Shown here piece by piece: positions 21,143-53,258 of a stretch of DNA of 64,000 nt. Position 1 is the first letter of the stretch, and the number at the start of each line of letters is the position of its first letter. Origin of the DNA: a virus (Duplodnaviria; Heunggongvirae; Uroviricota; Caudoviricetes); the IMG/VR virus record IMGVR_UViG_2639762884_000001; one strand, 5' to 3'. Below the pieces are notes generated by a model. It did no database searches and had not been told where the DNA came from. It saw nothing but the letters and a program-made list of their open reading frames with translations. The translations under genes and the position numbers were made by a program.

Positions 21143-23251
21143 ATGTCTAAAAAACGTTCCATCAAAGAGGTTCAGGACTTCCGTGACAGTGTAAAACGAG
21201 TAGTCGCTCTCCTTTCAGGTAAAAACATCCCTGTTGCAGAACGAGGGGACGACGCTTATGTACGCTATAACGATGATGGAGAGCCAATTCTCGTAAACAT
21301 CCCATCAATCCCGGATAACGCAACACCGGCATTGATGAATGCTGTGCGCGGATTTCTCGATCATGAGGTTGCTCACATTTTGTTTACCGATATTCGTGTG
21401 TCCAACAAAATGAGAGAAAAAGGACGCGTTCCTTCCTGGTCGCTATGGAATGCCTTAGAAGACGTGTTCATCGAGCGAAAAATGGGTCAGGTCTTTAACG
21501 GAACAAGACGTAATCTGATGGCAACTCAGCGCCTTATAATCGAAAAAGTCTTTAAACCAAAGGCTTCAGAGGCTATTGCTTATTGTGGCAAAGATCAGCG
21601 CGCGCTTTTTCTAAACTTCTTTCTCTGTCCGGTTGTAAGAGCCTGGGATGGCCAAGCACCGTTCGTAGATTTCATGGATGAATATTGGCCTGTCATTGAG
21701 AAACCAATTTCATTATTAAAAGAACATGGTATCGATGTGGCCGTGCGTAACATGTCTTGCACCGAGGATTGTGTAAAGGTGGCTGCGACCATAGCTAAGA
21801 TCCTCAAAGACACTGAAAGTGAAAGCAAAGGTAAGGAGTCAGCTCCGGGAAAAACTTCCGATCCTTCAGACGCTGACCAGACGGATGCCTCTGGAGAAAA
21901 CAATGAAGACAACGAAGATCATGAGACACCCTCAGCGTTAGATAATCACAAATCTATCAAATCAGAATCACACAGTAAGCACAAACATGATAATAACGAC
22001 AGTGATGATTCAGATAATTCTGAATCATCAGAAACAATATTCGATGATACAGAAAATGATAAAGAGGTATCAGATTCTGATGCTTCTGATAACGCGGTGT
22101 CAGAATCATTTACCGCTGACCACGAAAAAAGAAAAACGACAGAAGACGGCTCTTCAGATATTCCAACTCCGTCAAAAATGAGTCTGGAAGAGGCTTTAGA
22201 GGAGCTGGATAGCATAGAAGATGAAGTCGGAGGCATGACAGAAGATGCTCTATCCGAAACGATTAAAAGCGAGTTAACAGAAAGCTCGAAAAGCGAATAC
22301 AGGCCATACAATCGCTCATACGACTTCATCGGCTCGATTGATCAGGCAGAAGCCCATATCAAACGGCTTATTAAAACATTCTCCGATATTGATTTAGGAG
22401 GATATCCAATCAGCCGCTATCGCATCGTTCCTGAAGGCAACCAGCTCTTCGACAAATATATTGAAAAGCATCTTTCGTCAGGTGTTTCGTCGACGCTGGC
22501 AAAAGACCTGGAGCGAGCAATAGCAAGCAGAAACAGAGTTCAGTTTATACCGGGCCAGCGTCGGGGGCGCATTCATGGTTCTAGTATCTACAGATTAGCA
22601 ATGAATGATGATCGCGTGTTTCGTAAAAAAGAAGAATCTAAAGCCGTTAACGCCTGTGTTCAACAAGTGATTGATTTATCAGGTTCAATGAGTGGTATAA
22701 CGATACAATTGGCTCTTGCAAGTGCATATACCATCGCCGATGCCCTTGATCGAATAAATGTTCCCAACATTATCACCGGCTTCACTACATTTGGTAGTCA
22801 TATGGCGGCAGGAGAACTTAAGGCTGTCAAGTATGAGTTCTCTCGCTTTGAATCTTTAATGCTACCTATCATCAAAAATTGGAATGAAAAGGTAAATTCT
22901 CGCGAAGTTCGCTCACGTATGGGGTGCGTAGGCTACACATTCCCACTTCTTAATAACGTGGATGGTGAAAGCATAGCCAGCCTTGCATCGTTATTTTCCG
23001 GTCGCATGGAGGACAGGAAGATCATGCTTGTTCTGAGTGATGGCGCGCCGTGGGCTGTTGGGAGAGGTTTTGACGCTCATTTGCGTTCGGTTGCGAAGCA
23101 AATTGAAACGCAGACTGACATTGATTTGATGGCAATTGGCATCATGACTGACGCACCGGAGAGATTTTACTCAAATCATGCCCTGGTAACGAGCGTTGAT
23201 AGTCTTGGTTCATCTGTAGTTACTGAACTATCTCGTATCATTTTAAAGTGA
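21143..23251 (+). CDS. CobT-like vWA-domain protein with long acidic Ser/Asp-rich linker
   Basis: MIDAS-like DxSxS (VIDLSGSMSG) in C-terminal half; ~120-aa acidic low-complexity region; paired with downstream AAA+ gene. Confidence 0.55.
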   Translation: MSKKRSIKEVQDFRDSVKRVVALLSGKNIPVAERGDDAYVRYNDDGEPILVNIPSIPDNATPALMNAVRGFLDHEVAHILFTDIRVSNKMREKGRVPSWSLWNALEDVFIERKMGQVFNGTRRNLMATQRLIIEKVFKPKASEAIAYCGKDQRALFLNFFLCPVVRAWDGQAPFVDFMDEYWPVIEKPISLLKEHGIDVAVRNMSCTEDCVKVAATIAKILKDTESESKGKESAPGKTSDPSDADQTDASGENNEDNEDHETPSALDNHKSIKSESHSKHKHDNNDSDDSDNSESSETIFDDTENDKEVSDSDASDNAVSESFTADHEKRKTTEDGSSDIPTPSKMSLEEALEELDSIEDEVGGMTEDALSETIKSELTESSKSEYRPYNRSYDFIGSIDQAEAHIKRLIKTFSDIDLGGYPISRYRIVPEGNQLFDKYIEKHLSSGVSSTLAKDLERAIASRNRVQFIPGQRRGRIHGSSIYRLAMNDDRVFRKKEESKAVNACVQQVIDLSGSMSGITIQLALASAYTIADALDRINVPNIITGFTTFGSHMAAGELKAVKYEFSRFESLMLPIIKNWNEKVNSREVRSRMGCVGYTFPLLNNVDGESIASLASLFSGRMEDRKIMLVLSDGAPWAVGRGFDAHLRSVAKQIETQTDIDLMAIGIMTDAPERFYSNHALVTSVDSLGSSVVTELSRIILK

Positions 23252-23266
23252 ACAAAACAGCCTTAA

Positions 23267-23289
23267 CGATAAGTAACCACTTACGATAG
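23267..23289. promoter_or_regulatory. ATAAGTAA...ACTTAC motif (family member)
   Basis: cgataagtaaccacttacgatag between the CobT-like and CobS-like genes. Confidence 0.3.
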
Positions 23290-23346
23290 ATAATGATATA
23301 TTTATATAAGAAGTTGAACGCTCATTAGAAAACAAAGGAAAAACGC

Positions 23347-24582
23347 ATGACTACTACTGCACTGCAAAATGAAAAAAATCCTTCTGATTACCTTGTTTGC
23401 AAGTGGTGCGGAAAATCATTTCACTATTTTAAGTCCCATGTAGCCAATGGTAATTGCGAGGGCATTCCTGAGTCAGTAAAAGATGCCGATCCTGACACCG
23501 TACTGAAAATGTACACAACACAGTTTCCAGATGAGCCAACGCTATCGAAAAAGGCACTTGATGCAATTCAAGCTAAACGTGCCGAGCAAAAAAGCGAAAT
23601 GGCCAAATCATCTGGCGTGACCAGTAGCCCAGGCTACACAGGCACAGTTGAGTACAAGACAGATCTGGTCGCAGCTCACGAACTGCTAAATGTAACGGTG
23701 AAAGAACTCGGAACAAAACGTGGGACGCCGCTCATGGTTAGCGTCAACGTCAATACGCCGTTTCCAGAGTTCGTTCCAGAAGTGAAGAAGGGATACGTAT
23801 ATGGCGACTTCGAACTGATCAAAGACATTTTCATGATGCTTGAACTTGGCATACCTGGCTATTTGTGGGGTCATGCAGGAACAGGCAAATCTTCATTGCC
23901 TACACAACTATGTGCTTTGCTCAATCGTCCGTTAATCCGTGCCCAACATACAGCATCAATGGAAGAGGCTCATGTTACGGGACAAATTCTGGCGCGTGAT
24001 GGCTCTACGTATTTCGAGCCTGGCTTGCTTGCGCTCGCAATGAAGCATGGCTGGGTTTACCTCGCGGATGAATACGACTTTGCGTTTCCACAGATTCTTG
24101 GCGTGTATCAGCCAGTGCTGGAAGGTGAAGCGTTGGTCATCAAAGAGGCGACTCCAGAATGGCGTCGCATTACTCCGCATGAACGGTTTGCTTTCATTGG
24201 CACTGGCAACACGAACGGATCTGGTGATGAAACCGGCTTGTACCAGGGTACAAACATCCAGAACGCCGCGAACTTTTCGCGTTTTGGCATCGTTTCGAAT
24301 GTGAAATACATGAGCAAAGAGGCAGAGATCAACATGTTGATAAATGCCGGTATCGTGGATGAATACGCAGAAAAGATGGTTAAGTTTGCCGGTATCGTTC
24401 GCGATGGATACGAAGAACACCTTATCAGTCAGCCAATTGGCCCTCGTGAACTTTTGTTGTCGGCCAAGATTGGAATGATGCGAGGCGACTTTGTGACAGG
24501 TATTGAGCGTTCTTTCATTAACAAACTCCCTTCAGCTTCTGCACAAGCGGCTCGTGAAGTTGTTCAAAAAATATTTGGTTGA
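23347..24582 (+). CDS. CobS-like / MoxR-like AAA+ ATPase
   Basis: Walker A GHAGTGKSS, Walker B-like VYLADEYD; N-terminal Cys cluster (CKWCGKSF...HVANGNCEG). Confidence 0.6.
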   Translation: MTTTALQNEKNPSDYLVCKWCGKSFHYFKSHVANGNCEGIPESVKDADPDTVLKMYTTQFPDEPTLSKKALDAIQAKRAEQKSEMAKSSGVTSSPGYTGTVEYKTDLVAAHELLNVTVKELGTKRGTPLMVSVNVNTPFPEFVPEVKKGYVYGDFELIKDIFMMLELGIPGYLWGHAGTGKSSLPTQLCALLNRPLIRAQHTASMEEAHVTGQILARDGSTYFEPGLLALAMKHGWVYLADEYDFAFPQILGVYQPVLEGEALVIKEATPEWRRITPHERFAFIGTGNTNGSGDETGLYQGTNIQNAANFSRFGIVSNVKYMSKEAEINMLINAGIVDEYAEKMVKFAGIVRDGYEEHLISQPIGPRELLLSAKIGMMRGDFVTGIERSFINKLPSASAQAAREVVQKIFG

Positions 24583-28456: not shown

Positions 28457-29422
28457 TTAACAAATTCTATTATTAACTAGTATAGTATGGAGTTTATTAT
28501 TTATAGGGGAATACGGATCGAAATCACTCATCATGACACTATTTGATTCGCACGCCTGTTCAAAGGCATACATAATTATAGGCATATAGCGCTCATGACA
28601 TTTTTTAAGTGATTTAACTTCCTCTGATAGATACTCTAGTCGATTGTTACCTCTAATAGCCAATTCCACCTCATCATATGAGTACAACAAATCGTTTAAA
28701 TCACAGAAAAAATTAAAATTTGGTAGTCCATGTTTTAAATCCCCGTCCACAATTGTTTCTTCAAAGAATTCCCCTAATGCAGTAATGTTTCTCTCAATAC
28801 CTTCGCATCGTTCAATGATCTTCAGATCTTCACTAGATAGCCATAATCTAAGCCATTTCTCTCTATCCCTTGGAGATTTCAGATATTGGTCTTCGTTAAA
28901 TGTTACTGATGTACTTCCTGAGTTATTGTAATCCGCTGTACTTGATAACGATGCGATGGTTTGTTTGTCTAAATGCCGCCAGTAAATATCTGGCTCTTCA
29001 TGCTTATTATCTTCGTTTAGACAAATTAAAACGATCACTATAGGGAAATCGCATTCCCCCCAATACTTTAAATTTTTATAGGGGATCTGTACTCCTAGAC
29101 TACTACTCATTGTGCGTGAGGTGGTTTTTACCTGAACGCCAATAAACATACCGGTAGAAAGTTCATTTTCATAGATTTCAACCTGTGCATCCAACCCCAT
29201 ATCAATATCCAGCAGTCGACAAGGCCATTTGAAATAACGGGAAATCCAATAAGCAAATAAGTACTCACCAGCGTGTCCTTCTGCACTGGTCTTCGGATAT
29301 GTCATGCCTTCAGTTTTATTTTTTTCTGCTGCTGACCTCGCAGACTTAACTTTTGGGGGTGGGGACAGTTCTTTAGTCGGCACAGGCTTTTCTGCTTTTG
29401 CTTGATTGTTAGCTTTATTCAT
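28457..29422 (-). CDS. hypothetical protein with DUF4365-like (restriction-endonuclease-like fold) domain; candidate defence gene
   Basis: Opposite strand, AT-rich, terminator-bounded; Lys/Pro-rich N-tail then GEYLFAYWISRYFKWPCRLLDIDMGLDAQVEIYE...IGVQVKTT; domain assignment from memory. Confidence 0.5.
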   Translation of the reverse strand: MNKANNQAKAEKPVPTKELSPPPKVKSARSAAEKNKTEGMTYPKTSAEGHAGEYLFAYWISRYFKWPCRLLDIDMGLDAQVEIYENELSTGMFIGVQVKTTSRTMSSSLGVQIPYKNLKYWGECDFPIVIVLICLNEDNKHEEPDIYWRHLDKQTIASLSSTADYNNSGSTSVTFNEDQYLKSPRDREKWLRLWLSSEDLKIIERCEGIERNITALGEFFEETIVDGDLKHGLPNFNFFCDLNDLLYSYDEVELAIRGNNRLEYLSEEVKSLKKCHERYMPIIMYAFEQACESNSVMMSDFDPYSPINNKLHTILVNNRIC

Positions 29423-29565
29423 TGATTTTATTCTCACTTTGTTCTGTTCGCTTTATGCCCTGATTCTGCCCTTTAGCTCCCATACTGTCTACCGCTAATC
29501 ATAGCAGTAAAGCTCTTTTTATTTGATATAATCAAATACACAAAATTAAGTTGGAACCTATCAAA

Positions 29566-32416: not shown

Positions 32417-33490
32417 ATGGCAAAAGGAAAATCCGCACTGGCACTTGCTCTGAAAAAGAAAATCGGTAGCAACGACGAAATTCAGAAAGTAACTCATTGG
32501 ATTGATACAGGCTTTCCACCGTTAAACAAAGCTATTTCTGGTCGTTACGATGGCGGCTTCCCATGTGGTCGTATCGTCGAAGTATTCGGTCCTCCAAGTG
32601 CAGGGAAAACGTTCCTTGCAACAGCAGCGATGATCTCCGCTCAAAAACAAGATGGTCTGGCGGTATTCCTCGATCATGAAAACAGTTTTGACGTTGGCCT
32701 GGCTGTAGCCAATGGCCTGAACGCAGATGAGGATGACGGTCAGTGGGTATACAAGCAGCCAGATACCTTCGAAGACTCTGTAGAGTTGATCGGCACAATA
32801 CTTAAATTGGTTCGTGATGAAGAGCTTATCCCCGAATCAGCACCTATCTGTATCGTGGCTGACTCTCTTGCGTCTATGGTTCCGAACTCCAAAGCTGAGA
32901 AGTTCGAAAAGATGGCTGAAGGCACTGCCAAAGACAAAGATCAGCTAAACATGAACGACAATACGGCACTGGCTCGTGCGACGAGTGCGAACTTCCCTAC
33001 TCTGGCTTTGTGGGCACGCAAATACAACGCCTGCATCATCTTCTTGAATCAGGTTCGCACAAAAATCGGTGTAATGTTTGGCGACCCTACTACGTCGCCA
33101 GGTGGAGATTCACCGAAGTTCTACGCTTCTGTACGTATCCGTCTTGGTGCATCGGTGATGAAGGATGGTAAAGAGAAGATCGGCCAGGACGTAGGCGCAG
33201 AATGCATCAAAAACAAAGTTGCACCACCGTATGGCAAATGCACCTGGAAATTCTACTTCGATCCTACTCGTGGCCTCGACGTTATCGAATCGCTCGTCGA
33301 GTACATGCTGGAAGAAGGATACCTGCCAAAGAACGCCAGCGGGCGAGTTGAAATTGGTGACAAGAAATACACCAAATCGCAGATCGTCGAGATGTATCGG
33401 GAGAAGCCACTGGCTGAAATCATTGCGGCTTTGCAGGCAATCGACGACCGAAGAGCAAAAGACAACCCCACCGAGTCAGTAGAAGAGTAA
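32417..33490 (+). CDS. RecA/UvsX-family recombinase
   Basis: Walker A GPPSAGKTFLA inside RecA-like core; Walker B-like VFLDHE; 357 aa. Confidence 0.8.
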   Translation: MAKGKSALALALKKKIGSNDEIQKVTHWIDTGFPPLNKAISGRYDGGFPCGRIVEVFGPPSAGKTFLATAAMISAQKQDGLAVFLDHENSFDVGLAVANGLNADEDDGQWVYKQPDTFEDSVELIGTILKLVRDEELIPESAPICIVADSLASMVPNSKAEKFEKMAEGTAKDKDQLNMNDNTALARATSANFPTLALWARKYNACIIFLNQVRTKIGVMFGDPTTSPGGDSPKFYASVRIRLGASVMKDGKEKIGQDVGAECIKNKVAPPYGKCTWKFYFDPTRGLDVIESLVEYMLEEGYLPKNASGRVEIGDKKYTKSQIVEMYREKPLAEIIAALQAIDDRRAKDNPTESVEE

Positions 33491-33495
33491 ACACA

Positions 33496-33520
33496 AGGCG
33501 TCCACAGGACGCCTTTTTTA
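33496..33520 (+). terminator. rho-independent terminator
   Basis: aggcgtcc aca ggacgcct followed by ttttttat. Confidence 0.7.
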
Positions 33521-33532
33521 TCTCTTGAAAAT

Positions 33533-33551
33533 ATATAAGTGCTTACTTATT
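33533..33551. promoter_or_regulatory. ATATAAGTGCTTACTTATT motif (family member)
   Basis: Immediately after the terminator, ~30 nt upstream of gene 33583. Confidence 0.3.
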
Positions 33552-33582
33552 ATTTTCGCATAACAACCACATAGGAAAACAC

Positions 33583-33783
33583 ATGATCAAAATCTATCTA
33601 TTGGCAGTAGCCACAGGCCTTTCAGTGGCTCTCATCTACGGTTTACTGGTTCCGTCGCTGATTTCTACCAAGAGTGATTTAGCCGTCATGTTTGGAGTTA
33701 TCGTTGGTTTTGGTGCTCCTGTAATCGGTCTTATTGCTGGTCGTAAGTTTATCAACTCATTAATCAAAGCAAAGGGGAAATAA
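33583..33783 (+). CDS. small two-TM membrane protein
   Basis: 66 aa, two hydrophobic segments; directly precedes the SPFH gene. Confidence 0.5.
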   Translation: MIKIYLLAVATGLSVALIYGLLVPSLISTKSDLAVMFGVIVGFGAPVIGLIAGRKFINSLIKAKGK

Positions 33784-33786
33784 GTA

Positions 33787-34617
33787 ATGAAGAAAGGTTT
33801 ACTTGCAGTTGCTCTGGCGGCTATTTGCACAATGGGTCTTACTGGCTGCGATCGCGTGGAGCCTGGATACGTTGGCATCAAAGTAAACAAATTAGGTGAA
33901 GACAAAGGGATTGGTGAAGTGGTTGGCGTTGGTCGCCAATGGACAGGTCTTAACACCGAACTTTACGTATTCCCGACCTTCAAACAAATGAAGACCTACG
34001 ACGAGCCGTTCACATTCCAGATGAGTGACGGTACTGCTATTGGTCACAAAATTGGCGTTGCGTATCTGGTTAATCGTGACAAGGTAACGACGGTGTTCCA
34101 GACCTATCGCAAAGGCGTAGACGATATCACCGAATCAGATCTGCGTCAGAAAATTGCCGACTCTCTAAACCGTTTGGCCAGCCGTATGACCACTGACTCA
34201 TTTATCGACGGTGGTAAGGCACAATTGCTGGACAACGCACTGAAAGATATTCAGAAAGAGATGTCTCCGGTTGGTATTGAGGTACTGAGCCTGTCATGGG
34301 TTGGAAAGCCTGATTACCCAAAAACTGTCATTGAATCTATTAACGCCAAAGTAACGGCTAACCAGCGTACTCTGCAACGTCAGCAGGAAGTTGAACAACG
34401 TAAAGCTGAGGCGAATATGCTACGTGAACAGGCTAATGGTGAAGCTGATGCTATCCGTGCTCGTGCGCAAGCAGAAGCAGACGCCATTCGTCTGCGCGGT
34501 GAAGCTCTGCGTCAAAACCCGAACGTTATGGAACTGGAAGCCATCAATAAATGGAATGGCCAGTTACCGCAGTACATGACTCAAGGGGCTAACACTCCTT
34601 TCATTACAGTGAAATAA
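33787..34617 (+). CDS. SPFH/band-7 (stomatin/HflC-like) lipoprotein
   Basis: Lipobox LTGC in signal peptide; SPFH-like core; C-terminal coiled coil (QRTLQRQQEVEQRKAEANMLREQANGEADAIRARAQAEADAIRLRGEA). Confidence 0.65.
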   Translation: MKKGLLAVALAAICTMGLTGCDRVEPGYVGIKVNKLGEDKGIGEVVGVGRQWTGLNTELYVFPTFKQMKTYDEPFTFQMSDGTAIGHKIGVAYLVNRDKVTTVFQTYRKGVDDITESDLRQKIADSLNRLASRMTTDSFIDGGKAQLLDNALKDIQKEMSPVGIEVLSLSWVGKPDYPKTVIESINAKVTANQRTLQRQQEVEQRKAEANMLREQANGEADAIRARAQAEADAIRLRGEALRQNPNVMELEAINKWNGQLPQYMTQGANTPFITVK

Positions 34618-34633
34618 CTCCCCTAAAAAGTTC

Positions 34634-34660
34634 AGGCGTCCAGTTGGACGCCTTTTTTAT
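34634..34660 (+). terminator. rho-independent terminator
   Basis: aggcgtcca gt tggacgcct followed by tttttta. Confidence 0.7.
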
Positions 34661-34677
34661 CGCAATTATCTTATTAA

Positions 34678-34695
34678 GAAAACAATTTGTTTAAA
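34678..34695. promoter_or_regulatory. GAAAACAA-N-TTGTTT palindromic motif
   Basis: gaaaacaatttgtttaaa, 31 nt upstream of ATG 34709. Confidence 0.45.
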
Positions 34696-34708
34696 AGGAT
34701 AAGAAAAC

Positions 34709-35134
34709 ATGGCAGCTATTAAGAAACTCTACGATGCCGCAAACGTGGCTCTGGATGTTATTGATGATGAAGTAGCAAAAGGCTTTCCTGAACCTGATTG
34801 GGCGCATCAGCTACGAAACGCTATCGCAGAAATGACCCCACCAGATCCAACCCCCGACGAGACAGACTGGCAGCGATTCATCCGTATGTACGCTCAGGAA
34901 ATAGGTCCAACGCCAACGGCAGAGCAGGCAATGCTGCTGAAATACTTCAAAGAGGCGGGAGAGGATTTACCAATTGATGACTCAGCATATTGGTTCCACT
35001 GCGCATGGCGTAAGTATGACGTGATATTCACACAAGGCATGGGAAGCAAAGATATGGTTGTGTGGCATCTACTCCATATAGACACAGCCGTTGACAGAGT
35101 TATTGAACAGTTTTTCCCTAAACAAGAAGATTGA
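34709..35134 (+). CDS. hypothetical protein
   Basis: 141-aa ORF downstream of the palindromic motif. Confidence 0.5.
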   Translation: MAAIKKLYDAANVALDVIDDEVAKGFPEPDWAHQLRNAIAEMTPPDPTPDETDWQRFIRMYAQEIGPTPTAEQAMLLKYFKEAGEDLPIDDSAYWFHCAWRKYDVIFTQGMGSKDMVVWHLLHIDTAVDRVIEQFFPKQED

Positions 35135-35189
35135 TCGCCTATTCATAACTAACAAAATAAGTAAACACTAACCACAAAAGGAAAAACAC

Positions 35190-35465
35190 ATGAGAGTTTT
35201 AGTTCGAATCGTTACCAGCACTGTCTATGACGTGTTTCCGCTTTTTATGGTCAAAGCCGATGGCCTTAACGACGAAGAAACTGACGCGCTGATCCAGCGT
35301 ATTCTCGTTGAATATACAGGTCATGACGCTGATTCAGTGATGGTTGATGATGATGGTGTTTGTTGGCATAACGGCAACTGTTGGTACGTAGAAGAGACTC
35401 AACAAATCAGTGATGAAGATGCCGCACATCTTGAGCGTATTTTAAGCATCAGCACTTTTGAGTGA
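35190..35465 (+). CDS. hypothetical acidic protein
   Basis: 91-aa ORF with conserved AAAGGAAAAACACATG leader. Confidence 0.5.
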   Translation: MRVLVRIVTSTVYDVFPLFMVKADGLNDEETDALIQRILVEYTGHDADSVMVDDDGVCWHNGNCWYVEETQQISDEDAAHLERILSISTFE

Positions 35466-35504
35466 GTTTACAGTAAAATTTATATAAGTTAGTATCTACC
35501 TATC

Positions 35505-35684
35505 ATGAAGATTTTTATTGAATACTTGTTACTCATCGTTTCAATAGCTTTTGTCATCGACTGCATTTTCACCGGTGTCATTCGTAAAGTCTTTTCCCCG
35601 GTGAACGACGTAGTCATAAACGCTTTGGCTATCGTGCTCGTATTTAATTCAGCATTTGATGTAATCAAAGAGGTGGCAGCATGA
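35505..35684 (+). CDS. small membrane protein (~59 aa, not in ORF table; coordinates +/-1)
   Basis: MKIFIEYLLLIVSIAFVIDCIF...; stop overlaps next ATG. Confidence 0.3.
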   Translation: MKIFIEYLLLIVSIAFVIDCIFTGVIRKVFSPVNDVVINALAIVLVFNSAFDVIKEVAA

Positions 35685-36016
35685 AGGCCATCCCATTCGC
35701 GCTGTTGTTCCTTTCTTCGATCGTTGTGGCCGACACCACTGTTTATCAGTGTGAAATGTCTGTAGCCGACGTTAAGAATGGCGCTCTTACCGACGTCATA
35801 AAAGCACCATATGGCGCGATGGTCGTAGACAGCGGCGACCAGTTCTATGTTGTGCGAGACGATCGAGTATTGTCATCCCCATATCTCACAAACCGTAATG
35901 GCAAATTAACCGGCGTCGGAGAAGACCACTTCGTATACAACAAATACAAGGGCTTCTATGGCGTTCACGCTTCTCAGCAAAGCTACCTTTTCGATGACTG
36001 CAAGGAGGTTGGATAA
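35681..36016 (+). CDS. secreted hypothetical protein
   Basis: Signal peptide MKAIPFALLFLSSIVVA; AGAGGTGG RBS. Confidence 0.5.
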   Translation: MKAIPFALLFLSSIVVADTTVYQCEMSVADVKNGALTDVIKAPYGAMVVDSGDQFYVVRDDRVLSSPYLTNRNGKLTGVGEDHFVYNKYKGFYGVHASQQSYLFDDCKEVG

Positions 36017-36228
36017 TGGCATTAACACTGGCAGGTCTGGAAATCGAGAAAACAAGCGGATACTGGCGTGCTAAGGGTTTCAAGCAGCCTGGCATTCTTG
36101 AGCGTCTGGAACGTGAAGATGGGTATATCGTCCACCAGCGGCGTGAATGGCGTATGTACGATCCAGAAACAGGAAAACTGACTACAAAAGCCGGAACACT
36201 TTGGGGTCTGTTGAAGAAAATACACTAA
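36016..36228 (+). CDS. hypothetical protein
   Basis: 70-aa ORF, ATG overlaps upstream stop. Confidence 0.4.
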   Translation: MALTLAGLEIEKTSGYWRAKGFKQPGILERLEREDGYIVHQRREWRMYDPETGKLTTKAGTLWGLLKKIH

Positions 36229-36275
36229 ATGCAAACTGACTGCGGCACGTTCCGCAGTCATATTTCATAGTCGTC

Positions 36276-36808
36276 ACCGCTGACAGCATACACAATCAAC
36301 TGCCGCTGATAGCATATCGAGAGTCTATCTCACCGCTCACAGCATACTTTACTCGATTTTTTACCGCTGACAGCATACTTAAGACATTGCATGAATAATG
36401 TGTACCGGTATGGGTATAACCAGAACAAAATTACCGCTGGCAGCATACGAAGGTCTGATATATGCCATTAATTACCGCTGATAGCATATCCAAACAAAAA
36501 TTCCTCAATAAAACACCGCTGACAGCATACGTTCTATCAGGGAGCAGCAGGGAATAAATACCTTTCACTACAAGTAATCAGCGCAATGGGAATAGAATGT
36601 TAGTGAGCGCAAACCTATATGGAATGCACTCTTCGAGGTTAGTAACCACTGGGGAGGTATAAAAGAGCATTGAGTGGTGATAGATGATTTACCGCTCACA
36701 GCATACGTTTATCTCACTATACCGCTGGTAGCATATCTTTAACCGTTCACAGCATACTTTTCAGAAAAATAGCCGCTGATAGCATACATTTCACCGCTGA
36801 CAGCATAT
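36276..36808. repeat. iteron array I (12 copies of ACCGCTGACAGCATAC-like 16-mer) downstream of repA
   Basis: Copies start near 36276, 36302, 36332, 36363, 36433, 36474, 36515, 36691, 36721, 36742, 36772, 36793; variants CCGCT(G/C)(A/G)(C/T)AGCATA(C/T). Confidence 0.8.
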
Positions 36809-37902
36809 CAAAGCAGTTTGAGACTATTGGAAAGGATCTCAATCATCTTGATATTTTCAGGCGTCAAATTCTGCGAAAGTTCAGTTATCTTGTTGATAAT
36901 GTTCTGTTTAGCATCAATTTCCCCGGCTTTCTCATCTGGTTTTTTGGGTTCGATGTCTTCAGGTTTTGGCGGTGCGACTTTAAGTTTTGGATTGCGGCTG
37001 TGAATCTGGATATAGATCGACCGCCCTCGCTTAATCTCGCTGTATTCGAGATAGCCCAAATCTTGGAGAGCTTTTAAGCCGTTACGTATAGTCTGATTCT
37101 GCGAGCTTACATTCCTGCTACTCAAATTGAGTCGCGCACGCAATCGAGCAAGCGATACCGGCGCAGGCTTGGTTGGAAGACTTTCGATGAAGGTGTACAG
37201 AGCCTGTGCTGTTTCTTTGCGTGGTAGCTTATTGATAACCTTTAACTGCAAAAGAACCTTATGGTCAAAGCGATATAGTTCGGCCAGCTTCGGTTCTGCA
37301 TAGAACACCACCGTATCTTTCTGCTCGTTGTAGTCCACGCTATTGATGAGGTGCACCATCAGAAGCGAGATCTTGTTAGAGCCGTCGACGTTCTTTTCTT
37401 CATACGTTCTCTGGAAAGACAGAGTTGTACGCATGATCTTCAAAAGACTGTTTGTAAGCCGGTCGCGGAGTGTTTTGCGGATCTGTGACGATGGATAGCC
37501 ACAAAACTTCGCAAATTTCGTGATGCTTAACTCGACACGACCGTTAGGTTCGCCGTATTCTGCCAGCGAACGCACAACGCCCACCCACGTTTTGAAATCA
37601 TGATCCATGTCGAGACGAGGACCGGTTATCTTGATATCGGAATAGCCTTCAGAACGGGCTACTTCGAGCTGAACAAGCTCCTTTGAAGCATCGATCTCAT
37701 TTGGCTTGTTACGCTTGCTGTATTTTGTCCCCTTGAGCGTGGGCACGAACAATCCCAGCCGCATCAACGCAATTGGTTGGACTGTATTGTTGCTATTAGG
37801 GACAAGTTCCCCTGTGTACAATTCAAGGGAACCTTCTTCAAAGTTGTCGAGATTATCTTCTACTTCTTTGTTATTTTTACCTTTTTTATTTTTTGTGGAC
37901 AT
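36808..37902 (-). CDS. repA: plasmid-type replication initiator (RepA-like, iteron-binding)
   Basis: 365-aa basic protein flanked on both sides by iterons; ATG 37902 with AAAGG RBS (table start 38022 would run through the origin iterons); call rests on context. Confidence 0.6.
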   Translation of the reverse strand: MSTKNKKGKNNKEVEDNLDNFEEGSLELYTGELVPNSNNTVQPIALMRLGLFVPTLKGTKYSKRNKPNEIDASKELVQLEVARSEGYSDIKITGPRLDMDHDFKTWVGVVRSLAEYGEPNGRVELSITKFAKFCGYPSSQIRKTLRDRLTNSLLKIMRTTLSFQRTYEEKNVDGSNKISLLMVHLINSVDYNEQKDTVVFYAEPKLAELYRFDHKVLLQLKVINKLPRKETAQALYTFIESLPTKPAPVSLARLRARLNLSSRNVSSQNQTIRNGLKALQDLGYLEYSEIKRGRSIYIQIHSRNPKLKVAPPKPEDIEPKKPDEKAGEIDAKQNIINKITELSQNLTPENIKMIEILSNSLKLL

Positions 37903-37922
37903 GTGGACACCTTTGTCATTCA

Positions 37923-38024
37923 ACCGCTGACAGCATACTTGATTTGCCGCTGACAGAATACCAAAAACAGTTGGCAGCATACGGTGAACCGCTGACAGAC
38001 TATCAATTACCGCTGACAGCATAC
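37923..38024. repeat. iteron array II (4-5 copies) upstream of repA: candidate origin
   Basis: Same 16-mer at ~37923, 37946, 37971 (partial), 37988, 38009 with ~21-25 bp spacing. Confidence 0.75.
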
Positions 38025-38059
38025 ATGAACATGGCTTCAGACCAGTCGTGGCGCGGCTT

Positions 38060-38140
38060 ACAGCGATCGGGGATCTTATTTGATCTATACAAGGATCTAT
38101 CTATGGATCTCTTTATTAGGATCTATCCTGTGGATATGTG
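38060..38140. promoter_or_regulatory. origin-adjacent GATC cluster with DnaA-box-like site
   Basis: Six GATC within ~60 bp (repeated GGATCT/AGGATCTAT units) and TGTGGATAT at ~38129-38137 (one mismatch to TGTGGATAA). Confidence 0.55.
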
Positions 38141-38223
38141 AATAATTAAAACAGGCATTTACTACCTTCGGCGCACCTGGTGGGTTATCGTTGCCTCGGC
38201 TAACAATCACAGAAAAATGACAT

Positions 38224-38868
38224 ATGGATCTAAAACGCACGCGCTGGGTTCGTCGTCTTGAAGACGGCTCCTACACTATCGAATCAAATTCCAACCTGAA
38301 TAAGCAGAAGTTGCTTTGTGACATCTGCGGTATAGCGGCGAAGTGCCCGATCTACGAAACCAGAATTAAACTTGATAAGGCTGGTGTGAATTTTCATTTA
38401 AACAGTTGCATCAGGTACGTTCCATTACTCGCATTTCGTAAACCGATCATCGGATTGGATGCTCCCTACTTCAACACACTCCGTTCAGGTGTGACGTGGC
38501 GAGATCGTTTATCACCAGACAAGCTGATTTGCCTCGTATCCGCAGACACAGGGAAAATCATCCGTTTTGGGAAAGTAGACAAGGTTTACTCAGGCCCAGT
38601 AGACGAAATGTTGCGGAAACACAGCCGGTTTAATCATCTCTGTATGGGTGGTGAGAAAATCGAGAAGGTAGAAGAAGTGATCCGCAAATCCTACGGACAC
38701 TTTCTGACCAAAGATAGCCTGCTCACCGCAATCTACATCAGACATGTAAAACGTGAGTTCGACCTCGAATACCACAGCGAAGAAGAGCTTAACCTTGTTG
38801 ACCCACGTCCAAAAGCTGGCGTCATAAGCATAAACGCAGCGCGTAAAAAGCCCACTGACGCGCTGTAA
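38224..38868 (+). CDS. hypothetical protein
   Basis: 214-aa ORF next to the origin region. Confidence 0.5.
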   Translation: MDLKRTRWVRRLEDGSYTIESNSNLNKQKLLCDICGIAAKCPIYETRIKLDKAGVNFHLNSCIRYVPLLAFRKPIIGLDAPYFNTLRSGVTWRDRLSPDKLICLVSADTGKIIRFGKVDKVYSGPVDEMLRKHSRFNHLCMGGEKIEKVEEVIRKSYGHFLTKDSLLTAIYIRHVKREFDLEYHSEEELNLVDPRPKAGVISINAARKKPTDAL

Positions 38869-38990
38869 CCCTCCAGATCGTATATTGGCGTAGATAGAAT
38901 CTACGCCCCCTCAAAATAGCTCTCATAGCGTTCTACAGTGATCCTGTCTTATTTTTAGTCATACAGACAAGCAAAGTTGCGCCACGATAA

Positions 38991-39009
38991 ATAGGTATAT
39001 ACTTACTTA
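38991..39009. promoter_or_regulatory. ATAGGTATATACTTACTTA motif (family member)
   Basis: ~130 nt upstream of SbcD-like gene. Confidence 0.3.
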
Positions 39010-39122
39010 TAAATTTTGTATATTAAGGCGCTCGTTTCATTCCTAACATACCGTTATGCATAGTTGTTTACCTCCTCATTGCTCTTAGAATTTGTATCAA
39101 AATAACCACAAAGGAAAAATAC

Positions 39123-40208
39123 ATGACTTTGCCATACGGCGTCATTTCTGACTGCCACTACCACAAATGGGATGCGTTCTCCACGACGAACGCTGAGGGG
39201 CTTAACTCCAGACTTGAAATACAGTTGGAAGCAACGAAAGAAGCAGCCATCGCCATGAAGAAGGCCGGTTGTAAGTACATGTTGGTTGCCGGTGATACAT
39301 TTCACGTCCGAGGAACTGTGTCCCCTTCTGTTTTGCATTACGTAACTGAAACGTACAAGTGGATTATCAACGAGCTTGATCTGACAGTAGTAATGCTGGC
39401 CGGTAATCACGATCTTGAAACCAACGATTCAGTATATAGCGCCAACGCAGCAGCATCGCTGAGTTCTATCGGCGTGGTAATCGTATGTGGCAAGCGCCCA
39501 CACTCAATAAAAATTGGTGATGTGACTGTCCACCTGATTAGCTGGCGTAACAATCATGCGGAACTTATCAGCGATCTGAAAGCATTACGTAAGAGCGTAG
39601 AAGGTGATAATCATGACGTTGTTATCCATACATCCATTAACAAAGCCATTCCAACAATGCCTGACGTCGGTATCGATGCGCAGGAGTTAAAGGATATCGG
39701 CTTTCGTCTCGTGCTTAGTGGGCATTACCACAACCACAAAGAGGTCATTCCTGGAGTTATCAGTGTCGGTGCACTGACTCATCAAAATTGGGGAGATGTT
39801 GGATCTCTGGCTGGCTACATGATCGTAAACCCGGACGGCAGTTTCAGTCACTACGAAACCAGTGCGCCTAAATTCATTAACCTGGAAGATGATGTTGCTG
39901 ATGACCAAATTCGCGGCAACTACGTGCGTTTCCGCGCCGTAATTGAGAACGATGAAGAAGGCATTAAGTACCAGAACATCCTCAAAACAATGGGTGCAAA
40001 AGGTGTCGTGTGCAACTTCATCCGTAAGTCATCAATGATGGAAGGGACAGCCAGCACAACTGAAACCAGCAAAATCGATAGCCTAGGAGAGTCGGTATCT
40101 GCTTATTGCAAGATTGTCCACGATACTGACGGCGGATTTGATCTGAGCAAATTGGATATTTTGTGTCAGGAAATCCTCACCGAAGCGGAGAGTTCGGAGG
40201 CTGTGTGA
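39123..40208 (+). CDS. SbcD/Mre11-like nuclease (calcineurin-like phosphoesterase)
   Basis: Phosphoesterase motifs GDTFH, MLAGNHD, GHYHNH; followed by SbcC-like ATPase. Confidence 0.75.
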   Translation: MTLPYGVISDCHYHKWDAFSTTNAEGLNSRLEIQLEATKEAAIAMKKAGCKYMLVAGDTFHVRGTVSPSVLHYVTETYKWIINELDLTVVMLAGNHDLETNDSVYSANAAASLSSIGVVIVCGKRPHSIKIGDVTVHLISWRNNHAELISDLKALRKSVEGDNHDVVIHTSINKAIPTMPDVGIDAQELKDIGFRLVLSGHYHNHKEVIPGVISVGALTHQNWGDVGSLAGYMIVNPDGSFSHYETSAPKFINLEDDVADDQIRGNYVRFRAVIENDEEGIKYQNILKTMGAKGVVCNFIRKSSMMEGTASTTETSKIDSLGESVSAYCKIVHDTDGGFDLSKLDILCQEILTEAESSEAV

Positions 40209-40441
40209 AGCAAAGTCGTTATGGGAGCTTTCGAGACTTTGCCATCACGATGAAAAGACTTGAACGAGGCCAGACGGTGATGTTTCACAAGCCCTACCCG
40301 CCACAAGGAAATCCCGTAGCGTTTTATCTTGGAAGGTTAACAAGAAAAGGCGTATTGAGGCGCAGATCCTTCCCGGCGCATACGGAGTTCAGATTGAAAG
40401 AAGGCCAAAAGCTAACACACGGTATCAGAGGTGTTATATGA
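40163..40441 (+). CDS. small hypothetical ORF between SbcD and SbcC (uncertain)
   Basis: 92-aa ORF overlapping SbcD 3' end; no clear RBS. Confidence 0.2.
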   Translation: MSGNPHRSGEFGGCVKQSRYGSFRDFAITMKRLERGQTVMFHKPYPPQGNPVAFYLGRLTRKGVLRRRSFPAHTEFRLKEGQKLTHGIRGVI

Positions 40442-42354
40442 AGTTTTTAAAGCTCCAGGTTGAGAATTTTATGGCTATCGCCAGCGCGGAGGTCGAGTTA
40501 GATCAGCGTGGTTTAGTGCTCATTCAGGGTGTTAATAGTGATGATAGTTCCGCATCAAGTAATGGCTCTGGAAAGTCAACTCTAATGAATAGCCTGATGT
40601 GGTGTCTTTATGGCGAAACAGCTCATGGTGTGAAGGGTGACGATGTGTTGTCTACCGACCATGAAAAGAACTGTCGTGTTGCAGTAACCATCGAGGATGA
40701 AGGCAAGAGATACGCAATCATTCGTCACCGTAAACACAAAGAGTTCAAAAATCGTCTTATCGTTCGTGGTGAAGATGGCGATATGACGAAAGGCAAAGAT
40801 GCGCTGACGCAGGAGTTCGTCGAGCGTCTGATCGGTGCATCTAAAGAGGTTTTCATGGCTTCCATCTATGCGAGCCAAGAAGCTATGCCAGATTTACCTG
40901 GAATGTCCGACAAAAACCTCAAAACCATCGTAGAAGAAGCCGCTGGCGTTGACAGACTGACACGCGCCTACGCTATTGCTCGTGAGCGAGCTAATGCAGC
41001 TGCCGCACGTATGGATGTGGTTAAAACCAAATTGGAGTCGACAATCTCGACCATTGAGGCAACACAGTCAGAAATTGAGTCAGCGAAAGCCTCCTCTGAA
41101 TCATGGGAGCAAGAGCGTTCTAAACGTTATGACGATGCCCTGGCTGGGCTGGCCAGTGCCGAAGTTGAGTTAACGGAAGTTGAACTTGAGATCCGCACTC
41201 TTCCCGAACAGATACGTGATACCGAGAAGGCAATCGAAAGTGAGCGCAAAAAGTTAGCCTCAAAAGAAGAACATGACGCCAAGTTGCTCAAAGTTCGTGG
41301 TGCGATAACTGATATTCGGGCAAGCATCAACGCTACAGAAAATAGTCAGGCTGATGCAATGAACCGCGCGCGTAATTTTAAGACCAAAGCAGAAGAGGTT
41401 GGTACTAAAGTGGGATCACCATGCCCTACTTGTGGCAAAGCCTACTGCGAAGAAGATCTATCAACGGTGAAGGAGAATTTCATTGAACAAGCACGTCAGG
41501 AAATTGGTCAGGCGAAGACACTTGCAGAGGCAATGGCTAAACACAAAACGAATCTTGAGAAAGCGTTAAGCATTGAGTCTGCCCTTGTTAAAACGACACC
41601 TGATGTAACGGCTATCATTGCCCGGATTGAAGAGCTTACGAAACAACTCTCATCTTTGCGTCATCGTGAGAAGGAGGTTGTTGCTATTGAGTCTCTTGTG
41701 ACTCGTGCTCGTACTGAGGTCGATCGTATATCAAAAGAGATTAATCCGTTTATTGCTCTTATCGCCAGACACGAAGATAACTTGGTATCCAGTAAGTCTA
41801 CCTTCAAGTCCTTAAAAGATGAGTTGAAGGCTATTCAGGAACAAACGTTGCTATTGGAAAAAGCTCGTCAGGTCTACTCTCCTGCCGGGGTGCGTTCTCA
41901 TATTTTGACGTCTGTTACGCCTTTCCTGAATACACGCACTGCCGAGTATCTCAATACGTTGTCTGACGGGAATATTACTGCTGAGTGGTCGACGATGGAT
42001 GTCACTAAAAAAGGTGAGTATCGCGACAAATTCAACATTAGTGTGCAGAAGAAAGGTTCAAGTAAGTCGTTCCAGACCCTCTCTGGTGGTGAGAAGCGGA
42101 AGGTTCGCATTGCGTGTTCTTTGGCATTGCAGGATCTGGTTAGTAACCGGGCGAGTAAAAACATCGATTTGTTTATCGGCGACGAAATTGACGATGCACT
42201 CGATACAGCCGGTCTTGAACGCCTCATGGGTATTCTGGAGTCCAAAGCTCGCGAGCGAGGTACTGTGCTGATTATCTCCCATAAAGAGATGAAGTCATGG
42301 TTCCGGGAAACTATTACGCTGGAAGTTAAAGAGGGGCGCAGCTATGTCGTTTAA
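40438..42354 (+). CDS. SbcC/Rad50-like ATPase
   Basis: N-terminal Walker A GSGKSTLMNSL; long coiled-coil middle with CPTCGK zinc hook-like motif; C-terminal signature LSGGEKRK and Walker B FIGDEIDD. Confidence 0.8.
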   Translation: MKFLKLQVENFMAIASAEVELDQRGLVLIQGVNSDDSSASSNGSGKSTLMNSLMWCLYGETAHGVKGDDVLSTDHEKNCRVAVTIEDEGKRYAIIRHRKHKEFKNRLIVRGEDGDMTKGKDALTQEFVERLIGASKEVFMASIYASQEAMPDLPGMSDKNLKTIVEEAAGVDRLTRAYAIARERANAAAARMDVVKTKLESTISTIEATQSEIESAKASSESWEQERSKRYDDALAGLASAEVELTEVELEIRTLPEQIRDTEKAIESERKKLASKEEHDAKLLKVRGAITDIRASINATENSQADAMNRARNFKTKAEEVGTKVGSPCPTCGKAYCEEDLSTVKENFIEQARQEIGQAKTLAEAMAKHKTNLEKALSIESALVKTTPDVTAIIARIEELTKQLSSLRHREKEVVAIESLVTRARTEVDRISKEINPFIALIARHEDNLVSSKSTFKSLKDELKAIQEQTLLLEKARQVYSPAGVRSHILTSVTPFLNTRTAEYLNTLSDGNITAEWSTMDVTKKGEYRDKFNISVQKKGSSKSFQTLSGGEKRKVRIACSLALQDLVSNRASKNIDLFIGDEIDDALDTAGLERLMGILESKARERGTVLIISHKEMKSWFRETITLEVKEGRSYVV

Positions 42355-53227: not shown

Positions 53228-53247
53228 ATAGGTAATCACTTACCTAT
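53228..53247. promoter_or_regulatory. ATAGGTAATCACTTACCTAT palindrome (family member)
   Basis: Perfect AGGTAA/TTACCT inverted repeat just upstream of the Dam-like gene. Confidence 0.35.
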
Positions 53248-53258
53248 TGAGAAAGAAG

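Follow-up and report, generated by a model that had tools for sequence, protein, structure and literature searches.

A probable P1-type plasmid replicon with an exchangeable iteron-repA cassette in an SSU5-supergroup phage-plasmid

The segment 36246-38145 of the window, by which we mean the whole 64,000-nucleotide stretch of viral DNA that was analysed, is with a probability of about 90% the low-copy replicon that maintains the prophage state of a pECOH89/pSLy3-type phage-plasmid of the SSU5 supergroup, organised as a P1-type iteron replicon of the RepFIB family. Its initiator protein and its origin are homologous to those of P1, its architecture is conserved among relatives and its location is exclusively on plasmids. 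Replication, copy control and Dam dependence would follow the example of P1 and other iteron plasmids. Features of this kind are already known, this one being the ordinary plasmid-maintenance replicon of the SSU5/pECOH89 family, and the most useful addition is the recognition of the replicon core as a discrete specificity cassette.

Judged by sequence comparison, the element as a whole belongs to the SSU5-supergroup phage-plasmids. Across positions 38501-63500, phage Cyrano covers 96% of the sequence at 98.3% identity, PhiR41_1 (host MG1655) 89% at 97.5% and SSU5 71% at 78%, and the flanks of the replicon are syntenic with SSU5, Cyrano and pJN2-26. About 120 E. coli plasmids of 100-115 kb contain the replicon region at 98-100% identity. 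Of 5426 complete E. coli genomes, 120 carry it, in 185 places which are all on plasmids and never on a chromosome, a natural proxy for autonomous low-copy replication; it is also present in 144 mostly non-mobilizable plasmids in PLSDB and in the phages PhiR41_1 and CMS-2020a. The original prediction had spoken of a replicon inside a phage genome, which is no anomaly here, as a RepFIB-type replicon is the known and expected prophage maintenance system of the SSU5 supergroup (PMC4270462, PMC7969092, PMC3999498). Phage-like plasmids resembling pECOH89 carry RepFIB/Rep3 and have been proposed to be P1-like (PMC4270462), while the SSU5 supergroup has been typed as IncFIB (PMC7969092). On a backbone that hardly differs from that of pLF82, pECOH89 has a RepA with 48% similarity to the pLF82 protein (PMC3999498), and we measured 48-50% between the RepA of the window and that of Cyrano/pLF82; the agreement of these values suggests, by way of pLF82, the PlasmidFinder subtype IncFIB(H89-PhagePlasmid), whose reference is pECOH89 (HG530657).

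The initiator gene repA lies on the minus strand at 36808-37902, with its ATG at 37902 preceded by an AAGGTG Shine-Dalgarno sequence. It encodes a protein of the Rep_3 superfamily (RepFIB/P1 RepA family) that is predicted to bind iterons; strand and basic character (pI 9.46) are as first described, and the length is 364 aa, not 365. In the profile search against Rep initiator families that had been suggested as a check, RepA matches Pfam Rep3_N (PF01051) with an E-value of 3.9e-9 and 37.5 bits against a cutoff of 22.4, and the same domain is present in all 120 RepA homologues listed. BLASTP aligns the protein with P1 RepA at 46% over 278 aa (E 4e-86), and tblastn finds matches in both P1 and P7. 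The protein is genuinely homologous to P1 RepA and to the initiators of the RepFIB family.

The second half of the protein is recognised less easily. The match to Pfam Rep3_C (WH2) reaches 13 bits and stays below the threshold of 21.1, an NCBIfam scan of RepA matched no family, and the sequence search against PDB chains returned a chance match only (E 2.1), so that the link to initiators of solved structure had to be made through the predicted fold. In the AF2 model the core (residues 65-305) has pLDDT values of 76-91, with only 71 for the protein overall. Foldseek matches this core to domains 2-3 of RctB, to RepE, to the WH1 domain of pPS10 RepA, to pi and to TrfA, with more than 210 columns aligned to full-length RepE and RepE54, to pi and to RctB domains 2-3. 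The model points to two tandem winged-helix domains, WH1 and WH2, of which WH2 rests on the predicted fold. RctB of Vibrio cholerae chromosome 2 (PDB 5TBF/5UBF) is the best structural match (E 4.5e-8); it, too, initiates from iterons, and its origin needs Dam methylation. The two proteins share 13-14% identity, and RctB differs in its additional domains and in the set of sites that it uses; on the evidence of the model, RepA would work like RctB while standing outside the RctB family. The C-terminal tail of RepA was considered as a unique feature and discarded, as it is common to most RepFIB-like relatives.

Homology to P1 extends from the protein to the DNA of the outer half of the origin. 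A blastn search with P1 oriR as the query matches 38042-38156 of the window at 77% over 118 nt (E 2.6e-15), whereas the iteron half of the origin is only 43% identical to P1. At the outer end, on the minus strand, two DnaA-box-like 9-mers abut with one shared base (38129-38145), namely ATATCCACA at 38129-38137 and TTATTCACA at 38137-38145; each differs from TTATCCACA at a single position, and TTATTCACA fits TTWTNCACA. A near-consensus DnaA box had been noticed here, correctly as to its presence but as a single site. By simple arithmetic about 14 one-mismatch boxes are expected by chance in 64 kb, so that a lone box of this kind is not significant. The two 9-mers align with the annotated tandem DnaA boxes of P1 oriR (K02380 729-746), and relatives have a perfect TTATCCACA at this position.

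Next to the boxes, six GATC sites in (A)GATCC-type heptamers are packed into 59 bp (38065-38123), as predicted. This is the only such cluster in the window, where the next-densest 60-bp stretch holds three sites and the background is 4.3 per kb. The spacing of 14/12/12/10/7 bp in repA sense is identical in a Salmonella relative and nearly so in Klebsiella and Rosenbergiella relatives, and in alignment the cluster falls on the Dam sites that are annotated in P1. It is presumed to be the Dam-methylated opening region that SeqA sequesters. Between the cluster and the iterons lies a spacer (38024-38064) with a G+C-rich stretch (GCCGCGCCACG.CTGG) that is conserved with P1. At the inner end of the origin, the tandem TGTCCACA TGTCCACA across the repA ATG (37894-37910, minus strand) may be a weak DnaA-box-like element with 2 mismatches; the corresponding sequence in relatives is GTATCCACA, ATATCCACA or TTGTCCACA (1 mismatch), and in P1 CTATCCACA lies between the iterons and repA.

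The iterons were counted with the query CCGCTGACAGCATA, allowing up to three mismatches over the whole 64-kb window. This gave 24 matches, a number reached by none of 100 shuffled controls (mean 4.7, maximum 12). Seventeen of them fall on the plus strand between 36277 and 38023, twelve 3' of repA (36277-36807) and five 5' of it (37924-38023); the repeat unit is 14-16 nt, and all seventeen copies flanking repA are on one strand. The origin array (37924-38023, minus strand) is the counterpart of P1 incC and consists of five direct copies of TATGCTGTCAGCGG(T) in repA sense. Four to five upstream copies at about 21-25 bp had been predicted; the array is real and comprises exactly five, which are spaced at 21/21/21/23 bp and thus two helical turns apart. 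This phasing is kept in every relative examined.

The downstream array, the counterpart of P1 incA, does contain the twelve copies originally counted, but not at a uniform spacing of about 30 bp. Block I (36692-36807, minus strand) begins at the repA stop codon with five direct iterons spaced at 21/30/21/30 bp, and block II (36277-36529, minus strand) has seven direct iterons at 41/41/70/31/30/26 bp. They are separated by an iteron-free segment of 145 bp (36540-36684), which splits the array 5+7, shows partial conservation in the Salmonella relative and is absent from Klebsiella. A promoter scan found no consensus promoter in this segment and Rfam gave no match to it; an Rfam scan of 36000-38500 with E-values up to 1 likewise returned no known antisense or regulatory RNA. 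Small open reading frames in the control array are all shorter than 40 aa and are translated iterons. In phage PhiR41_1, 36276-36362 is missing through a clean iteron-to-iteron deletion of three copies.

Set beside P1, the replicon matches element by element, which bears out the predicted P1-type architecture of origin iterons plus a presumed control array. P1 has two DnaA boxes, five GATC sites, five iterons at 21/21/21/22 bp, repA and then nine iterons from the stop codon; in the window the order is two DnaA boxes, six GATC sites, five iterons at 21/21/21/23 bp, repA and twelve iterons from the stop codon. Both have the G+C-rich spacer, both lack an inverted-repeat operator, both RepA proteins are basic (P1 RepA has a pI of 9.41), and the incA array of P1 also starts within a few nucleotides of the repA stop codon. 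The differences lie in detail. The iterons are TATGCTGTCAGCGG in the window and TGTGTGCTGGAGGGA in P1, and the twelve control iterons are all direct, while the nine of P1 incA are three direct and six inverted. RepA has 364 aa against 286 in P1 and is extended at its N-terminus by an acidic stretch of about 12 residues and at its C-terminus by a tail of about 55 aa. Unlike in P1, parAB is not adjacent to the replicon, and the ParA of the window is encoded 31 kb away. The prediction of a RepA-type replicon is supported by the homology to P1 RepA, the iteron-initiator fold, the 77% match of half of oriR and the plasmid-only location.

By analogy with P1 and other iteron plasmids, RepA monomers would bind the five in-phase origin iterons and host DnaA the boxes at both ends of the origin, and together they would open the adjacent region of GATC heptamers, with Dam methylation required for firing. 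The host replisome would be loaded once the origin is open. After firing, the hemimethylated GATC region would be sequestered by SeqA, which would limit initiation to once per cycle. The twelve iterons downstream of repA would form the copy-control and incompatibility locus equivalent to incA, titrating RepA and pairing with origin-bound RepA (“handcuffing”). RepA bound to the origin iterons would probably repress its own promoter too. A scan of the minus strand at 37903-38060, in and near the origin iterons, found no consensus sigma-70 promoter, so that autorepression does not draw support from the sequence; no good hexamers are aligned in the window with the -35 and -10 positions of P1, and the search of 37880-38060 found no inverted repeat of the kind that forms the inverted half-iteron operator of F RepE or pPS10. 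Two further candidates were rejected. A TTGATA-19 nt-TATGCT promoter picked by eye has an over-long spacer and is not conserved in Klebsiella, and an inverted iteron-like site within repA (37556-37569), considered as an operator or handcuffing target, has three mismatches and is missing in the Klebsiella and Salmonella relatives.

The replicon sits in a large phage-type replication module with a DnaB-like helicase, primase, ligase, Pol III alpha, a gp32-like SSB, RecA and SbcCD-like genes. This neighbourhood, and the fact that no other origin was identified in the window, would suit a RepA/iteron origin that also, or mainly, serves lytic (vegetative) replication in an element which, unlike P1 with its oriL/repL, has no separate lytic origin. 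Such a role is unlikely, as the replicon is homologous to P1 oriR, a plasmid-state origin under strict copy control, and a negative-control array of twelve iterons is hard to square with runaway lytic replication. The predicted Dam-like methylase is indeed present in the form of a phage-encoded Dam-family N6-adenine methyltransferase (53247-53852, plus strand; PF05869, E 2.4e-37). If it has GATC specificity, it could modify the origin cluster, a possible but unproven role; this is one possibility among others because the Dam of an E. coli host would also methylate these sites. The phage enzyme could conceivably free the origin from host Dam or help to time the switch from plasmid to lytic growth.

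As a prophage-state plasmid replicon, the system would keep a widespread family of E. coli phage-plasmids as low-copy plasmids in about 2% of complete genomes. Some family members carry CTX-M-15 or other resistance genes, and the replicon is a target of plasmid typing schemes. The SSU5 group has been little studied experimentally, and what is known of P1 (handcuffing, Dam/SeqA control and chaperone activation) is directly applicable to it because the replicon is a close structural copy of that of P1.

The iterons and repA form a discrete cassette (36246-38035, minus strand, comprising the five origin iterons, repA and the twelve control iterons) which has been exchanged for an SSU5-type set in phages that are otherwise 96-98% identical. 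On each side, 3.3 kb of flanking sequence match phage Cyrano at 96-97% identity, and there is no detectable nucleotide match within the cassette; homology to Cyrano stops at 38036 and restarts at 36245. The upstream breakpoint, at about 38036, falls within the spacer between GATC cluster and iterons. The downstream boundary is a terminator-like bidirectional hairpin (36237-36260) with a 9-bp stem containing six GC pairs, located at the end of a convergent plus-strand operon. At the same genomic site Cyrano/pLF82 has an SSU5-type RepA (50% identity to that of the window) and unrelated iterons, ATCCACTGTAGTGAG, and each of the two iteron types is absent from the other element. The SSU5/Cyrano replicon has the same outer DnaA/GATC half and the same iterons-repA-iterons organisation on a 96-98% identical backbone, but its control array is of mixed orientation and its origin is apparently partly duplicated. 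It is an alternative cassette and not an orthologous copy of the replicon in the window.

The two RepA types on one phage backbone are each found in roughly 120-130 of the 5,426 complete genomes, and the mapped boundaries suggest how such elements could change their incompatibility group. Tentatively, the outer origin half and the terminator might be a portable junction at which specificity cassettes swap between phage-plasmids and plasmids. P1 and the SSU5-type elements share the outer half at about 77% and RepA at 46%, with no DNA similarity beyond the replicon. Were such a junction to exist, nearly identical phages could switch incompatibility group and either co-reside with or displace one another.

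That Cyrano-type elements have their alternative cassette at precisely this position is an argument that the essential replicon is located here. It speaks against the very improbable alternative of a remnant replicon, decaying or redundant, with plasmid maintenance provided by another initiator in the element. No direct point favours a remnant, although relatives have slightly less degenerate DnaA boxes than the window; repA has an intact reading frame, which about 120 plasmids share at 98-100%, and the cis architecture persists in Salmonella, Klebsiella, Rosenbergiella and metagenomic relatives, down to a Rep identity of 62%. Among these the origin array is constant. The control array varies, from 8, 9 or 12 copies in the closer relatives to a smaller number detected in the two that diverge most. 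In Rosenbergiella (L009) and the metagenomic relative (L010) the first detected control copy lies 20-45 nt downstream of the stop codon; the other arrays start within a few nucleotides of it. The iteron sequence co-varies with a 62%-identical Rep, and it changes together with Rep in L010 and in Cyrano/SSU5, an indirect sign that RepA may bind its adjacent iterons sequence-specifically.

The closest non-phage relatives by protein are the RepFIB initiators of F-type enterobacterial plasmids, with about 50% RepA identity (E about 1e-83) in thousands of plasmids. They share the C-terminal tail, and a different iteron specificity is expected of them; P307 RepFIB has repeat arrays on both sides of repA. 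Much nearer are the Klebsiella pKpn/IncpKPHS1 replicons, with an 85% identical RepA, the same iteron core, five origin iterons in identical phasing, a GATC cluster, DnaA boxes and eight control iterons interrupted by a shorter gap unrelated to that of the window. The published description of the Klebsiella replicon lists only four iterons 3' of repA and a RepA without a known domain, so the full P1-like anatomy went unrecognised there (PMC6735626).

In GenBank MZ779062, a Klebsiella relative, the repeats are annotated as attL/attR, and the window does have a tyrosine integrase gene (19096-20199), but prophage attachment or recombination sites are a scarcely credible reading of seventeen copies (not two) that surround a Rep_3 initiator exactly as in P1, co-vary in sequence with the Rep protein and belong to an element that is never chromosomal. 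Recognition of the flanking repeats as initiator-binding iterons corrects one of two recurring annotation errors, their labelling as attL/attR; the other is a RepA start that yields a protein of 404 aa.

The minus-strand ORF at 36808-37902 encodes what is, judging by its sequence, a replication initiator of the P1 RepA/RepFIB family. As expected from the original prediction of a RepA-type protein, a profile search against initiator families placed it above threshold in Pfam Rep3_N (E 3.9e-9), and in BLASTP 278 residues aligned with P1 RepA, 46% of them identical (E 4e-86). The RepA proteins of P1 and P7, SSU5 (48%) and a Klebsiella phage-plasmid (85%) were retrieved by tblastn, as were RepFIB-type initiators of about 50% identity on more than 5000 plasmids, and homologues in a large protein collection carry the names “RepB family plasmid replication initiator”, “RepA” and “RepFIB replication protein A”. 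The PDB, searched directly with the sequence, gave no match. The core of an AlphaFold model based on 26 homologues is predicted with confidence, and the top structural matches of the model are iteron-type initiators throughout: RctB domains 2-3 (E 4.5e-8), F RepE, the MSBI1.176 WH1 domain, pPS10 RepA, R6K pi and TrfA.

The protein is basic (pI 9.46), as had been stated, with a length of 364 rather than 365 aa. Compared with P1 RepA, its acidic and poorly predicted N-terminal region is about 12 residues longer, and at the C-terminus it adds a tail of some 55 residues (310-364; window 36808-36972) which P1 RepA lacks. This tail, in which two predicted helices (residues 327-342 and 348-363, pLDDT ~80) come after a disordered acidic linker, is common to most RepFIB-like relatives, with the motif LT.E.l.LlE.L. 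RefSeq/PGAP annotates a RepA of 404 aa starting at ATG 38022 (36808-38022, minus strand), the 40 additional residues of which (MLSAV...SLSAV...ILSAA) are the origin iterons in translation. ATG 37902 has an AAGGTG Shine-Dalgarno sequence and agrees with homologue N-termini, and many deposited plasmids are rotated to it.

Reading of 36000-38500 together with a repeat finder gave the iteron core CCGCTGACAGCATA on the plus strand. With up to three mismatches it occurs 24 times in the 64-kb window, while shuffled sequences average 4.7 occurrences and do not exceed 12; 17 matches lie in 36277-38023, all on the plus strand and mostly with 0-2 mismatches, while the other seven are 3-mismatch matches, six scattered and one inside repA on the opposite strand. 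This inverted site (37556-37569, minus strand), which the iteron at 36435-36449 matches as a pair (93% over 15 nt), is probably due to chance, as the Klebsiella and Salmonella relatives lack it. Two arrays of one repeat thus flank the gene as predicted, although in detail they differ from the first description. Upstream, where four or five copies at ~21-25 bp had been proposed, exactly five are present (37924-38023; spacing 21/21/21/23 bp). The twelve downstream copies (36277-36807), the first of which starts at the stop codon, are not evenly spaced at ~30 bp but form blocks of five and seven separated by a 145-bp iteron-free insert (36540-36684). About 75 nt of the insert (CCCAGTGGTTACTAACCTC ... 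GTTTGCG.TCACTAACATT) are kept in the Salmonella relative and absent from the Klebsiella arrays, and the insert yielded no Rfam match, consensus promoter or ORF of at least 40 aa. The predicted cluster of six GATC sites in ~60 bp is borne out (59 bp, 38065-38123; at most three per 60-bp stretch elsewhere in the window), and the supposed single near-consensus DnaA box is a pair of abutting DnaA-box-like 9-mers at 38129-38145.

The replicon was compared in the same orientation with that of P1, as annotated in GenBank (K02380). In both, the order is DnaA boxes (two each), GATC sites (five in P1, six in the window), an array of five iterons (at 21/21/21/22 bp in P1, 21/21/21/23 bp in the window), repA and a run of iterons from the stop codon (nine in P1, twelve in the window). 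In layout, the cis elements copy oriR-repA-incA of P1. By sequence the resemblance of the origins is more than analogy, because the outer half, comprising DnaA boxes, GATC heptamers and G+C-rich spacer, aligns at 74-77% nucleotide identity (blastn over 38042-38156, E 2.6e-15). The iteron stretch reaches only 43%; hence the half read by host factors is conserved and the half read by the initiator has diverged with its initiator. Of the proposed P1/F-type architecture the P1 part holds, in element order and outer-origin identity; no operator built of inverted repeats, such as those of F RepE and pPS10, was detected by the repeat finder, and this fits P1.

Relatives were taken with flanking DNA from Salmonella (93% Rep identity), Klebsiella pJN2-26 (85%), K. 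oxytoca (79%), Rosenbergiella (78%) and a metagenome (62%). All of them keep the outer DnaA boxes, often as perfect TTATCCACA, the GATC cluster and a DnaA-like box at the repA start. The GATC spacing of the window, 14/12/12/10/7, recurs in the Salmonella and Klebsiella relatives and is off by no more than one base in the remaining two; five sites are present in the 62% relative. Detected origin iterons match the five-position register, some relatives having at least one position below the 3-mismatch threshold. In the closer relatives the control array starts at the stop codon; in the two most divergent ones, 20-45 nt separate the stop codon from the first copy detected. The array has twelve copies in both the window and Salmonella, nine in K. 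oxytoca and in phage PhiR41_1, and eight in Klebsiella. What sets PhiR41_1 apart from the window is a deletion of 87 bp that runs cleanly from one iteron to another (36276-36362). A fixed origin array with a plastic control array is what the P1 model predicts. The 62% relative has an altered iteron (TATTCTGTAGGCGG); protein and site therefore co-vary. In GenBank, two repA-flanking iterons of pJN2-26 (MZ779062; 2378-2397 and 3648-3667 of the fetched locus, L005) are annotated as the phage attachment sites attR and attL, which looks like an artefact of prophage-boundary tools catching the direct repeat. In Rosenbergiella (L009 1-1238) a divergent P1-type parA/parB pair (HTH_54 + CbiA; PF08775 ParB) adjoins repA; the sole ParA-like gene found in the window (222 aa, 4513-5181) lies 31 kb from the replicon.

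Phage Cyrano (pLF82) is 98.3% identical to the window over 25 kb beside the replicon, yet its RepA shares only 50% identity. In a 9-kb alignment around the replicon, identity is 97% across 38036-41417 and 96% across 33000-36245, with no detectable alignment across 36246-38035. The origin array of five iterons, repA and the control array of twelve make up exactly this block; the DnaA/GATC half of the origin sits in the common flank. Cyrano carries at this site an SSU5-type RepA with ATCCACTGTAGTGAG iterons, and each iteron type is absent from the other element. Among complete E. coli genomes the window cassette occurs in 120 and the Cyrano cassette in 129, on plasmids in every case. The alternation parallels that of IncY and p0111 replicases reported for P1-like elements (PMC7969092), and the exchange probably changes the incompatibility group. 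The control array of the SSU5/Cyrano-type cassette is of mixed orientation, as in P1. Between its first iterons and repA this cassette (L011 3600-3900 in Cyrano; L004 in SSU5) has an apparent second, internal copy of the origin half, in Cyrano with DnaA boxes at 3608/3655, four GATC sites (3669-3769) and further iterons (3776-3882).

In PLSDB, 144 plasmids, most of them non-mobilizable and ~100-115 kb in size, match the 2-kb replicon region at 98-100% identity. The region also matches phages PhiR41_1 (host MG1655) and CMS-2020a; of 5426 complete E. coli genomes 120 carry it, and all 185 occurrences are plasmid-borne. The window encodes ParA, DnaB-like helicase, primase, ligase, integrase, Pol III alpha, gp32-like SSB, RecA, SbcCD-like proteins, NrdAB, ThyA, DHFR, RNase H and Dam, which is the SSU5/pHCM2-type backbone. 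pECOH89-like elements have been described as phage-like plasmids, “analogous to phage P1”, whose initiator is of the RepFIB (Rep3) type (PMC4270462), the SSU5 supergroup is typed IncFIB (PMC7969092; bioRxiv 10.1101/2025.09.12.675607), pECOH89 and pLF82 RepA show only 48% similarity despite nearly identical backbones (PMC3999498), and only four downstream iterons are reported for the Klebsiella branch (PMC6735626). No paper giving the full P1-like anatomy for the window's lineage was found in the literature; this anatomy follows directly from homology. The replicon is real and was correctly read. As the maintenance replicon to be expected in a known phage-plasmid family, and one that has been typed before, it has little novelty. 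Interest remains in the sharply bounded specificity cassette, the host-factor origin half conserved with P1 at the nucleotide level, the control array, whose 12 copies are all direct and are split by a 145-bp insert, and the annotation errors exposed by the analysis.

Homology, architecture, conservation, plasmid-only location and cassette structure are direct observations; the mechanism is drawn from established knowledge of P1 and other iteron plasmids. RepA monomers would bind the phased origin iterons and DnaA the terminal boxes; the methylated GATC region would open, its hemimethylated form being sequestered by SeqA. The downstream array would limit copy number by RepA titration and origin handcuffing. 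RepA would also repress its own promoter, which is the weakest step because a consensus search located no repA promoter. The Dam-like methylase that had been noted is encoded at 53247-53852 and may contribute at the origin, for which host Dam suffices in principle.

Three further features of the backbone were observed. RecA is encoded by 1074 bp in the window (32417-33490) and p503440_100, and by 2340 bp in PhiR41_1 (L002 951-3290) and Cyrano (CYRAN_55); the in-frame insertion of ~1.27 kb could be an intein or homing element. A DUF4365 gene (28457-29437, minus strand), possibly an accessory or defence insertion, lies between Pol III alpha and gp32-like SSB in a block of replication genes that is otherwise on the plus strand. 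Adjoining the Pol III alpha gene, a 702-aa CobT-like VWA protein and, after it, an AAA_5 (CobS/MoxR-like) ATPase are encoded at 21143-24582 (plus strand), a pair conserved in the SSU5-type phage-plasmid backbone.
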